The notes: a model not told the origin generated them from the letters alone. Positions 37,512 through 39,777 are shown, counted from the first letter of the stretch. The stretch: DNA of 64,000 nucleotides from Ruminococcus sp. (GCA_045654185.1 JAZOMY010000022.1:4891-68890); one strand, 5' to 3'. Made by a program: numbers and translations.

Positions 37512-38069
37512 TTATTTGTTGTCTTTCAAATGCTTTACGTACTCATTTTCATCAATATTAAAACAATTAAAGTATGCAACATCCTTCAGTGGATACACTC
37601 CTGTATCGTTAGCATGAAAGGAAACATACACGATTCGATAAGTTTCAGGATTGTAGATTATTTTTTCTATATCAGCATAGCCAACCGCTTGTTCTTCGTT
37701 GTTATCATTATCCAAAATGGAATACGAGTCTTGAAAAACAACTTCGTAGAATCCATCGGAGTAATAGCATTCCACACTATTACTCATAACTTCAGAAAGA
37801 AGCTCATCAAATTGACTTTCAGTTACAGTAATATCCAAGAAGATTTCGTGACAAACATCCATCCACGCCTCCAAATTATAGGCATACGCATTTACGGAAT
37901 AATCTTCAACAGAGTCCGGGAAAAACTCAGGTAATTCTATGTAATATTCAAGTTTTCCATATTGTTGAACATCAGTTACTCGCTTACTCCCGAAATCGCA
38001 AGCAGATAGTGAAAACATCATTGCAATGATAATTATAATCGATAGAACAAAACTGAGAATTCTTTTCAT
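37512..38069 (-). CDS. Hypothetical lipoprotein (accessory, AT-rich)
   Basis: MKR + hydrophobic stretch + lipobox LSAC. Start moved to ATG 38069. Confidence 0.75.
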   Translation of the reverse strand: MKRILSFVLSIIIIIAMMFSLSACDFGSKRVTDVQQYGKLEYYIELPEFFPDSVEDYSVNAYAYNLEAWMDVCHEIFLDITVTESQFDELLSEVMSNSVECYYSDGFYEVVFQDSYSILDNDNNEEQAVGYADIEKIIYNPETYRIVYVSFHANDTGVYPLKDVAYFNCFNIDENEYVKHLKDNK

Positions 38070-38250
38070 TATAGGTTCCCACCTTCCCATTATTATCGGT
38101 CCAGTACTTAATCCAGCGGATATAGTTGAGTTTATATTTAGTTTATCACAAAACCACAAGTTTTTCAATTAAACACAGGAAAAACCTATCTTGTCATGAT
38201 AGACAAAAGAGGCTTTTTTGTTGGCAAAGGGTAACCAAAAGTACACCAGG

Positions 38251-38385
38251 TTAAAGCTGTTTATATAGCAAGGAGATTTTCGACTTGAAATACTGTTCTT
38301 GGAAATGCGTTAATTCTGCAATCTCTTCCCGTGTGAAAGTCATACCTTCCGTTGCAACTACCCATTTATGCTCAATATCATTTTG
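38251..38385 (-). pseudogene. Frameshifted C-terminal remnant of a small inorganic-pyrophosphatase-like protein
   Basis: Reads NDIEHKWVVATEGMTFTREEIAE, then after a shift near 38310 HFQEQYFKSKISLLYKQL*. This resembles the tail of that Clostridial family as I recall it; no 5' part or start codon. Confidence 0.55.
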
Positions 38386-38731
38386 TATTCTCCTTTGCGG
38401 TGCGGCAGGATGCAATCAGAAGTCTGCGAATGTTACCACAAAGTTTTTCTGTATATTGATAAGTTTCAACATCTATTCTTTTGGTTTCATACATCAACTT
38501 CAACCAATAACTCGTTTCGTTGGATTCTTTGAGTGCAATTTCCAATTTTGCTACAAAGTCTTTCTTGCTCTGTGCGTACTGTGCTTCGTGGATATTAGCA
38601 CCAACCGATGTACCTGCTCTTGCGAGCTGATCGGTCATATAGGAACTTTTTGGTGCAGTTACACCGTCAACAAGATTCACAATCGCAACTGCAAATTCAA
38701 AAGATAAATCAAGTAATTTGTTTTCAGACAT
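38378..38731 (-). CDS. Four-helix-bundle protein (23S rRNA IVP / Avd-like family)
   Basis: LSFEFAVAIV, DQLARAGTSVGANIHEA, SKKDFVAKLEIALKESNETSYWL motifs. Start at ATG 38731. Confidence 0.88.
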   Translation of the reverse strand: MSENKLLDLSFEFAVAIVNLVDGVTAPKSSYMTDQLARAGTSVGANIHEAQYAQSKKDFVAKLEIALKESNETSYWLKLMYETKRIDVETYQYTEKLCGNIRRLLIASCRTAKENTK

Positions 38732-38753
38732 AAATGCACCTTCTTTCAATAAC

Positions 38754-38782
38754 ATTATACTATGAAATATTGCGTTTTTCAA
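38754..38782 (-). promoter_or_regulatory. Promoter TTGAAA-17-TATAAT for the four-helix-bundle gene
   Basis: Read directly from the sequence. Confidence 0.75.
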
Positions 38783-38950
38783 CGATATATCGTATGTGCG
38801 ATATGATATACGGCTGTCGCCGCATGATATACTTGCTTCGCAAGCATGATATAATATCCGTTCCTTCATATGCCGAAGGCATATATCATCCACCGAGGGT
38901 GGATATCATATCGAAGATATATCACCCGTTCCGACAGGAACGGATATCAT
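38782..38950. other. Multi-hairpin structured element (ncRNA or ssDNA), strand unknown
   Basis: Seven short hairpins/palindromes linked by recurring ATGATATA and ATATCA motifs, plus an 11-bp long-range pair (38854-38864 with 38937-38947). Confidence 0.7.
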
Positions 38951-38995
38951 TGAAAAAAGTCTCTTTTGTCCGGTAGACAAAAGAGACTTTTTTCA
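38951..38995. terminator. Bidirectional terminator abutting the tRNA CCA end
   Basis: Perfect 20-bp inverted repeat TGAAAAAAGTCTCTTTTGTC/GACAAAAGAGACTTTTTTCA. Confidence 0.85.
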
Positions 38996-39071
38996 TGGAG
39001 CTGGTGACGTGACTTGAACACGCGACCTGCTGATTACGAATCAGCTGCTCTACCGACTGAGCTACACCAGC
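38996..39071 (-). tRNA. tRNA-Thr(CGT)
   Basis: 76 nt, GCTGGTG acceptor stem, anticodon arm GCTGA-TTCGTAA-TCAGC, GTTCAA T-loop, encoded CCA. Confidence 0.97.
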
Positions 39072-39210
39072 GAATATTTTGCTGCGGGCTGCAAACACAG
39101 TCTCCTGAAAATCAATGTTTCAAAACAGGGAATAACTCAAAAACTCTCGGGAAATACTGCACTTGTCCAACCAAAAAACACGTCTGCTTACTATAAATCA
39201 ACTTTGGGTA

Positions 39211-39239
39211 ATTATATATCAGAATCGCGTATTTTTCAA
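39211..39239 (-). promoter_or_regulatory. Probable tRNA-Thr promoter TTGAAA-17-TATAAT (implies a ~135-nt leader)
   Basis: Read directly from the sequence. Confidence 0.6.
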
Positions 39240-39369
39240 GAGTCGCGACGATTTTTTGCTATGAATGTGCAAAATTTGTCATATTTCGTGAAACGTTTTC
39301 ACAAAATCAACAACTGTGCCCATTTTCGTTTAATAATATAATTATCAAATTATGTTCGGGGTGGAAAAT

Positions 39370-39777
39370 ATGTCAAAAGAACTGGGCAGAAAACTGGCTA
39401 TGCTGAGAAACAACAGCGAGCTGACACAAAAACACATTGCCGATGCTCTGCATCTGGACAGGTCTACCTATGCCTACTACGAGCGCGGAACAACAGAGCC
39501 CGACCTGAAGGCATTGGTAAAAATCGCTCGTATCCTCAATGTTGACCCCACAGAGCTTCTTCCCTCCAAGGACGGAGAAGATGCGGATGTTGCCGACGTT
39601 TCCGCCGAAAGCAGCAAGCCCCGAAGGAGAGGTAAATCCGATCCGCGTTCAAAGAACTCAAAAATTTACTCCCTCAGCAGAGAGGAAAAGAAACTTCTCT
39701 CCCTGTACAGATCCCTGGATGATGCCAAGCGCCGCGAGGTTGTGGATTTCACAGACGGACTCACCCACAAAACCTGA
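39370..39777 (+). CDS. XRE-family HTH transcriptional regulator
   Basis: LAMLRNNSELTQKHIADALHLDRSTYAYYERGTTEP HTH pattern. Confidence 0.88.
   Translation: MSKELGRKLAMLRNNSELTQKHIADALHLDRSTYAYYERGTTEPDLKALVKIARILNVDPTELLPSKDGEDADVADVSAESSKPRRRGKSDPRSKNSKIYSLSREEKKLLSLYRSLDDAKRREVVDFTDGLTHKT

Follow-up and report, generated by a model that had tools for sequence, protein, structure and literature searches.

We have analysed a structured repeat at positions 38782-38995 of a 64,000-nt stretch of Ruminococcus sp. DNA (GCA_045654185.1 JAZOMY010000022.1:4891-68890; hereafter the window), which belongs to a genome of 2.03 Mb in 22 contigs. The element begins immediately past the final base of a tRNA-Thr gene, and a gene for a four-helix-bundle (4HB) protein is placed 264 nt downstream of that tRNA. 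It is one copy of a dispersed repeat of ~215 bp, composed of a terminator and an inverted pair of arrays of the Rfam motif Gut-1; in gut Oscillospirales this repeat directly follows the last base of tRNA and tmRNA genes, or other terminators. We see about even chances that the double array is the non-coding head, a folded-DNA cis site, of a small mobile gene cassette residing in tRNA flanks. On the tRNA-sense (minus) strand the order is tRNA CCA, terminator, array A, centre, array B, promoter, 4HB gene and a coupler formed by a Shine-Dalgarno (SD) sequence and an ATG:

38996-39071, minus strand: tRNA-Thr(CGU), CCA encoded (ARAGORN; Rfam tRNA 71.2 bits)
38951-38995, minus strand: bidirectional intrinsic-terminator hairpin with perfect 20-bp arms (38951-70 and 38976-95), an A-tract and a T-tract
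38866-38950, minus strand: array A, the Gut-1 match, with AUGAUAU/GUGAUAU linkers and hairpins hp1-hp4
38926-43, in array A: hairpin hp1, CCGUUCC/GGAACGG (as DNA, CCGTTCC/GGAACGG)
38908-20, in array A: hairpin hp2, ATATC/GATAT
38888-904, in array A: hairpin hp3, ATCCACC/GGTGGAT
38868-84, in array A: hairpin hp4, ATATGCC/GGCATAT
38851-38865, minus strand: centre, GGAACGGAUAU(UAU), complementary to AUAUCCGUUCC at the array start (38936-38950)
38782-38850, minus strand: array B, with linkers UAUAUCAU, the complement of the array A linkers, and a weak plus-strand Gut-1 match
38829-47, in array B: hairpin hp5, containing CTTGC/GCAAG (38832-44)
38808-25, in array B: hairpin hp6, containing CGGC/GCCG (38811-22)
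38786-803, in array B: hairpin hp7, ATATCG/CGATAT (stems 38786-91 and 38798-803)
38782-38754, minus strand: promoter of the 4HB gene, TTGAAA-17-TATAAT, touching the array
38378-38731, minus strand: 4HB gene, 117 aa, PF05635 / TIGR02436, ending in AAGGAGAATACAAAATGA, an SD sequence and an ATG that overlaps the stop codon

A base-by-base reading finds the hairpins, the linkers, the 11-15-nt complementarity and the 20-bp terminator where a preliminary description of this DNA, made from the sequence alone, had placed them, and likewise the three ATGATATA and four ATATCA linker words. The perfect terminator does abut the tRNA CCA, and the other end of the array touches the -35 box of the 4HB promoter; the array starts 2 nt past the 20-bp terminator. 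This -35 box is fused to the last linker, as it is in related copies with different spacer sequences. The 12-nt palindrome ACGATATATCGT (38782-38793) was correctly located but differently made than had been supposed: it consists of the last linker and an ATATCG/CGATAT stem, and the hairpin had been overlooked. The fold of the minus strand has z = -8.8 and that of the plus strand z = -7.7 (200 shuffles). Chance hairpins are ruled out by these scores, by the E-value of the Gut-1 match (1.3e-11) and by a scan with a generic detector for periodic chains of word and hairpin, which returned 36 chains in the genome versus 1 in shuffled sequence. The detector also caught ACGGGAGCAGTTGT repeats outside the window (G000 C9:1745-2250); these have no relation to the arrays and look like a linker repeated within coding sequence.

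The element had been thought to fit no named family. Its tRNA-proximal half is in fact Gut-1 (RF01706), a match that goes against the claimed novelty: array A scores 61.9 bits at 38878-38952 on the minus strand, against a gathering score of 50, and fits the model end to end (positions 1-77 of 77). Array B scores 30.2 bits on the plus strand (38760-38835), below the cut-off. Since the matches lie on opposite strands, the element is composed of two Gut-1 arrays facing each other. Array A contains what Gut-1 requires, three covarying hairpins of free sequence with a GUGAAAU-type word between them, the conserved word here being AUGAUAU/GUGAUAU. Gut-1 was reported from 43 human-gut metagenome sequences, with context and function not stated, and was rated 'certainly RNA' ('Y'; Rfam type 'Gene; sRNA') (Weinberg et al. 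2010, PMC2864571). The published form is a single array known from human-gut metagenomes only, whereas here two arrays form an inverted pair, which has a start-centre helix and a terminator of its own, in ruminant-gut genomes, at the 3' ends of tRNA and tmRNA genes and often with a 4HB cassette after it. The word variants AUGAUAU, GUGAAGU, AUGAUG and UGAUGAUAU are partly missed by the Gut-1 model. A search of the literature on Gut-1, PF05635 and tRNA-linked hairpin arrays found nothing past the 2010 listing, and the composite form of Gut-1 and its genomic context appear to be undescribed. A CRISPR array was rejected, as the word has only 7-8 nt, the 'spacers' are palindromic and the best CRISPR direct-repeat model reaches 21.6 bits against a cut-off of 45.

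Covariation was assessed in an alignment of 20 ATGATAT-type copies from this genome and from metagenome-assembled genomes (MAGs) of other species. Compensatory changes maintain the seven local hairpins: 93% of the cells are paired and 21 pairs are changed on both sides, with compensatory changes in hp2-hp4 of array A and in hp5-hp7 of array B. None of 500 shuffles reaches any of the pairing measures, and slid controls are 21-52% paired. The helix between the start of the array and the centre (AUAUCCGUUCC with GGAACGGAUAU) is 99.1% paired in the same copies, versus 93.6% for the local hp1. Across word types this pair is changed on both sides, in at least six sequence versions (ATATCCGTTCC, GATGTTTGCC, GATGTGTTCCGC, TAAGTGTGCC, TTATATTCGC, CAAGCCGCAGG), and in 48 of 60 loci the match is significant against shuffles (p<=0.01), with a mean length of 10 nt versus 5.1. 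The 11-bp alternative pairing that had been proposed as a switch is thus conserved and covaries between linker types; judging from the sequence, it is able either to enclose array A in a loop or to act as a competitor of hp1. Of the array A loops, 74% have the form T..C on the tRNA-sense strand, while array B, with 39% G..A, is less regular. Loops of the G..A form, which is how the T..C loops of array A read on the other strand, are of a type found in very stable DNA mini-hairpins. The spacing of the words is irregular (16-26 bp, standard deviation 3.8). Fixed helical phasing is ruled out by this spacing, and the words are therefore not kept on one face of a duplex.

The genome has 10 double-array loci. 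Every one abuts an intrinsic terminator, and five lie directly behind tRNAs. Each is built of a terminator, three to four units consisting of a variable hairpin and a 7-8-nt word, a centre, and three to four units with the complementary word. Read on either strand the order is the same, the Gut-1-sense half and then its complement; one word type is reversed. The local word is ATGATAT; five loci have GTGATATT, and GTGAAGT and TGATGATAT are each found at two. Among 41 related genomes the number of Gut-1 matches varies between 0 and 34 in a patchy manner, with many genomes of the same genus having none, and the count tracks that of 4HB genes (Spearman 0.55, p = 2e-4; presence, Fisher p = 0.012). 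The same hairpin is found in different slots of different copies, and the units look shuffled. Three variants point to recombination within arrays: a deletion in array A exactly between two direct GGAACGG copies (L138, G027:C16), a truncated array B (L141, G027:C20) and a perfect tandem duplication of ~125 bp comprising the 4HB 3' end and array A (L158, G026:C6). Certain other word types, exemplified by L144 and L145 of G027, have the 4HB gene between A-type and B-type arrays rather than after both. A lone terminator with a cassette-type apex (CACTTTTGTCTACTGACAAGAGTG) and no adjoining array, at G000 C5:10263, may be a cassette remnant.

The protein encoded next to the array is a clear member of the family that comprises intervening-sequence (IVS) proteins and Avd (PF05635, 85.8 bits against a cut-off of 33.8; TIGR02436, 94.4 bits against 24; PDB 2RLD, E = 8.3e-26). 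All four PF05635 genes of the genome are directly downstream of an array, and an array lies upstream of 65 of the 73 4HB relatives that have enough upstream DNA. The word type follows the 4HB clade, with 15 label changes on the tree versus 40 when shuffled, which physical linkage alone would explain. Array and gene had been proposed to form a unit; they do travel together, but the pairing is not obligatory, as an adjacent 4HB gene is lacking for most arrays of G026 and G027, often with none of that type anywhere in the genome, and for 6 of the 10 arrays here. All six of the local orphans share their word type with a 4HB-linked array. The idea that each array type requires its cognate 4HB protein holds in this genome and fails in two others: G027 (98% complete) has at least 8 ATGATAT-type arrays, behind tRNA-Val, Cys, Glu, Gly, Arg and Pro and a tmRNA, and G026 has 4 orphan arrays of the GTGATATT type, in both cases without a 4HB gene of the corresponding clade. 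It follows that the array is primary and outnumbers the 4HB cassette, which often accompanies it. Searches with PADLOC defence-system models gave no match for the 4HB protein. As in the IVS, where a gene of this family is set in a stable-RNA gene beside a long hairpin, the gene here keeps company with stable RNA and hairpins; Avd is a nucleic-acid-binding accessory of a mobile genetic system. Unlike the IVS, it does not lie in 23S rRNA (no rRNA match was found in 38200-39400), and unlike the Avd of diversity-generating retroelements (DGRs), it has no reverse transcriptase among the neighbouring genes and no template or variable repeats nearby (repeat scan of 38700-39000).

A scan with the four local 4HB proteins, with one genome per species, yielded 80 loci, mostly from ruminant-gut MAGs of Acutalibacteraceae, Faecousia and Oscillospiraceae. 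Related copies are linked to tRNA 3' ends and to 4HB genes, as the preliminary description had anticipated. A co-oriented tRNA or tmRNA gene is present in 46 of the 64 4HB relatives with enough upstream DNA; it ends a median of 262 nt before the ATG, and 15 kinds of tRNA are represented. Proteins at least 91% identical to the local 4HB protein are encoded behind tRNA-Arg, Gly, Lys, Val, Glu and Leu (Thr here), and an 86%-identical one behind a tmRNA. At the DNA level, homology of 77-92% extends from the tRNA's final base, or from the array, as far as the stop codon of the 4HB gene, between flanks that are unrelated; in L016, L020, L030, L033 and L034 the homology to the local copy opens at the tRNA end. 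The terminator frame CCA-TGMAAAAG...CTTTTTYCA is repeated behind different tRNAs with its stem altered by compensation, and the apex TTTGTC-N-GACAA occurs in 28 of 72 heads, so that the terminator belongs to the unit. These comparisons indicate transfer of the unit from one tRNA flank to another and across species. The suggestion that the element is the cis end of a tRNA-targeting cassette, one of two offered at the outset, is the best supported by the tRNA flanks and the homology boundaries.

The cassette appears to have a coupling device and cargo. Among the 76 relatives 42 4HB ORFs (open reading frames), from several clades (L016-L095), end in AAGGAGAAnnnnAAATGA, in which an SD sequence precedes an ATGA overlap, and in 32 of these the coupling ATG opens a cargo ORF of 60 aa or more. 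The cargo proteins are mutually unrelated and include GNAT acetyltransferases, a nucleotidyltransferase, NUDIX and MazG proteins, a methyltransferase and a kinase-like P-loop protein. At the locus described here the coupling ATG opens only seven codons, and two decayed features follow:

38251-38382, minus strand: 3' remnant of a cargo gene, ~43 codons, out of frame with the coupling ATG
38180-38219, minus strand: decayed second copy of the terminator, preceded by CCA-AC; its 5' arm AAAAAAGCCTCTTTTGTCTA matches 19/20 and its 3' arm is degenerate

In its DNA the remnant is 91% identical to the 3' part of an ORF that a relative of the same genus has intact (L118, in G055). Its breakpoint is at AATGATAT, which is also a word of the local array type and may represent microhomology or coincidence. 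The decayed terminator is likely the 3' end of the cassette transcription unit. A cassette that is always bracketed by two terminator or head copies is seen at this locus but was rejected as a rule, given that a second copy occurs at 8 of 64 loci overall.

Within ~2.5 kb of the element are rpsO, pnp, an unknown ORF of 218 aa, a gene for a helix-turn-helix (HTH) protein and an amidohydrolase gene. The 218-aa ORF (37512-38168, minus strand) has a lipoprotein-like N-terminus (LSACDFGS) and lies in a lineage-specific segment of 1.6 kb between the tRNA and rpsO. None of Pfam, NCBIfam and PADLOC places it in a family, and its DNA is matched nowhere else in the genus. The nearest and sole co-linear relative, G049, carries 3.4 kb of other genes between tRNA-Thr and rpsO in place of the 1.6 kb here, and homology to it breaks 5 nt beyond the tRNA. 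In most genomes of the genus the tRNA-Thr(CGU) near rpsO has the opposite direction, divergent from rpsO, and is followed by the HTH gene (38996-39352 compared with L108-L121). As co-orientation with rpsO and pnp is confined to this genome and G049, the tRNA segment was evidently inverted in this lineage.

If the double array is a folded-DNA head of a mobile cassette, it might work as follows. Opening of the duplex by replication or supercoiling would let the hairpins fold out. The extruded hairpins, with their conserved words and the clamp between start and centre, would be presented as a structured site, as in attC of integrons. A trans-acting factor could then use this folded site, and the cassette would be inserted or exchanged at the terminator hairpins behind stable-RNA genes. 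The 4HB protein, whose gene usually leads the cassette, may serve as an accessory that binds nucleic acid, like Avd in DGRs, with the array able to persist without it. A more specific version, that of a folded-DNA recombination site in an undescribed system of integrase-less cassettes, mobilised in trans and bringing small accessory genes to places behind the tRNA and tmRNA genes of gut Clostridia, with the 4HB protein as a type-specific nucleic-acid chaperone, we offer as a speculation that is rather unlikely in this full form.

Several observations weigh against a mobile cassette. Within a genome the hairpin sequences vary from copy to copy, and recent bursts of copying are not seen. No empty site was found in the genus, where the tRNA-Thr of most relatives is inverted and G049 is too diverged (76-95% identity) and carries other genes, and exact-protein look-ups of the HTH protein, S15 and the 4HB protein returned no filled and empty pair of sites within a species. 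There is neither a target-site duplication nor a duplicated tRNA 3' end at the locus, and a second copy of the head is convincing at only ~4 of the 8 loci where one was scored. Beside the locus we found no recombinase, transposase or integrase-sized ORF. The Y1 (HUH) transposase family PF01797 is absent from G027 and G036, which have 34 and 29 Gut-1 matches, and its presence correlates weakly with array number. These last absences led us to reject repetitive extragenic palindromes (REP) driven by IS200 transposases or REP-associated tyrosine transposases (RAYT) as the general driver. A classical tRNA-site island was rejected for want of a tRNA-end repeat and of an integrase beside the locus, and a miniature inverted-repeat transposable element or insertion sequence on account of the missing target-site duplication, the differing hairpins and the rarity of a second head copy.

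Whether the element works as RNA or as DNA is the principal alternative to be weighed. A structured non-coding RNA is possible, if doubtful: array A would be made by read-through of the terminator, or else an opposite-strand transcript would cover all of the element and finish at the bidirectional terminator, and the hairpins would display single-stranded RUGAWAU words to a protein, possibly the 4HB protein, as a sponge or scaffold, with the start-centre helix as a switch. The strong covariation of the hairpins and the alternative pairings, typical for RNA switches, agree with this, and four further points favour RNA and count against a folded-DNA site. These are the match above the cut-off to a family with a 'Y' rating as RNA; the greater regularity of array A, the tRNA-sense half, which also fits an RNA from one strand; the excess of G·T over A·C in stems on the tRNA-sense strand (39:19 and 36:22, a weak bias since the copies are related); and the occurrence of related arrays in metatranscriptome assemblies. 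The bias would equally be expected from a folded lagging-strand template. The metatranscriptome data, which are assembled contigs from other organisms, give unstranded depths of 2-8 for the arrays versus thousands for tRNA, which carry-over of DNA could explain, and in run X5 the ratio of array to gene depth equals that of DNA runs. Any single transcript would, moreover, have half of the element antisense to the motif. The array has a terminator in front and a -35 box behind, and no promoter able to feed it, an antisense one included, was found at the locus. The identical order on either strand and the irregular spacing of the words also speak for DNA. Because it is placed between a strong terminator and a promoter, the array probably acts as DNA and not as an abundant RNA, in contrast to the filing of Gut-1 as RNA, and we lean towards a folded-DNA site.

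Other roles for DNA were considered as well. A housekeeping repeat like REP or the bacterial interspersed mosaic element (BIME), an insulator behind stable-RNA genes that has no role in mobility and spreads passively with its flanks, seems unlikely. It could back up termination, absorb supercoils or bind gyrase or a nucleoid protein, and its expected traits are present: a constant place beside a terminator, in most cases that of a tRNA or tmRNA gene, with the next promoter downstream; multiple copies with species-specific abundance; palindromic units in two orientations with conserved words between them; and many copies that lack a 4HB gene. REP units keep the sequence of their palindromes, though, and this element does not; the repeat is missing from many genomes of the genus and is therefore dispensable; no RAYT is encoded in G027 or G036; and the sharply bounded unit of array and 4HB gene, 77-92% identical behind different tRNAs and in different species, argues for transfer. 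A duplex-DNA operator array, whose words would bind the 4HB protein or another regulator of the adjacent promoter, we regard as quite improbable. The last word is fused to the -35 box in fixed register, the word type accompanies the 4HB clade, and four word types go with four 4HB genes in this genome, where each orphan shares its type with a linked array; but linkage accounts for the co-clustering, the orphans of G026 and G027 lack the 4HB gene of their clade, orphan arrays often have no adjacent promoter, word spacing is variable, and duplex binding needs no selection for hairpin pairing. Least probable is the nested multibranch fold of the preliminary description, a rod of stacked four-way junctions formed by linker pairing. 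The complementarity of left and right linkers does hold, and in every word type, and the minimum-free-energy fold has some linker pairs. The fully nested fold is nevertheless incompatible with the conserved and covarying start-centre helix, unequal numbers of units persist in L138, L141 and L158, and in the copy at C15:178k of this genome all four left words are GTTATATT and all four right words AATATCAC, so that each pair is mismatched at one and the same position; the linkers are invariant within a type and thus give no evidence of covariation.

Read as the head of a mobile cassette, the element can be compared with several known systems. It resembles integron attC sites in being a small imperfect palindrome in which the sequence is free and the folded structure and core words are conserved, a resemblance of design and not homology. 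Like integrons, the units are small cassettes with miscellaneous cargo (GNAT, nucleotidyltransferase, NUDIX), and a platform ORF provides translational coupling, as ORF-11 does in attI1. Unlike in integrons, the structured site opens the unit at its 5' end instead of closing it at the 3' end, the unit has its own TTGAAA-17-TATAAT promoter where integron cassettes are promoterless, and the presumed target is the 3' flank of tRNA and tmRNA genes; no IntI integrase, attI or Pc was found beside the locus, IntI not having been searched genome-wide. The likeness to REP/BIME and RAYT systems lies in multi-copy extragenic palindromes in both orientations, with motifs between the units, usually just past terminators and of species-specific abundance. 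Here, however, the palindromes are variable while the linkers and the start and centre words are conserved, the repeat is linked to a protein-coding cassette, and two array-rich genomes have no Y1/RAYT. Bacterial class C group II introns likewise land by terminator hairpins, but they have an intron RNA structure and a reverse transcriptase, both lacking here, and in our element the terminator appears to be part of the unit itself.

Gut-1 has been in Rfam since 2010 without context or function, and PF05635 has no known role outside DGRs; the locus and its relatives link the two and provide a genomic grammar for both, which runs tRNA CCA, terminator, array A, centre clamp, array B, promoter, 4HB, SD/ATGA and cargo. 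Should the arrays serve as insulators behind tRNA genes, Clostridia would have in them a counterpart of BIMEs. If the cassettes are mobile, they would be an abundant and overlooked route by which gut Clostridia gain small accessory genes, among them those for acetyltransferases, nucleotidyltransferases and NUDIX/MazG hydrolases; and should they be mobilised in trans, a single function would be at hand for Gut-1, 23S IVS proteins and Avd-like proteins outside DGRs.

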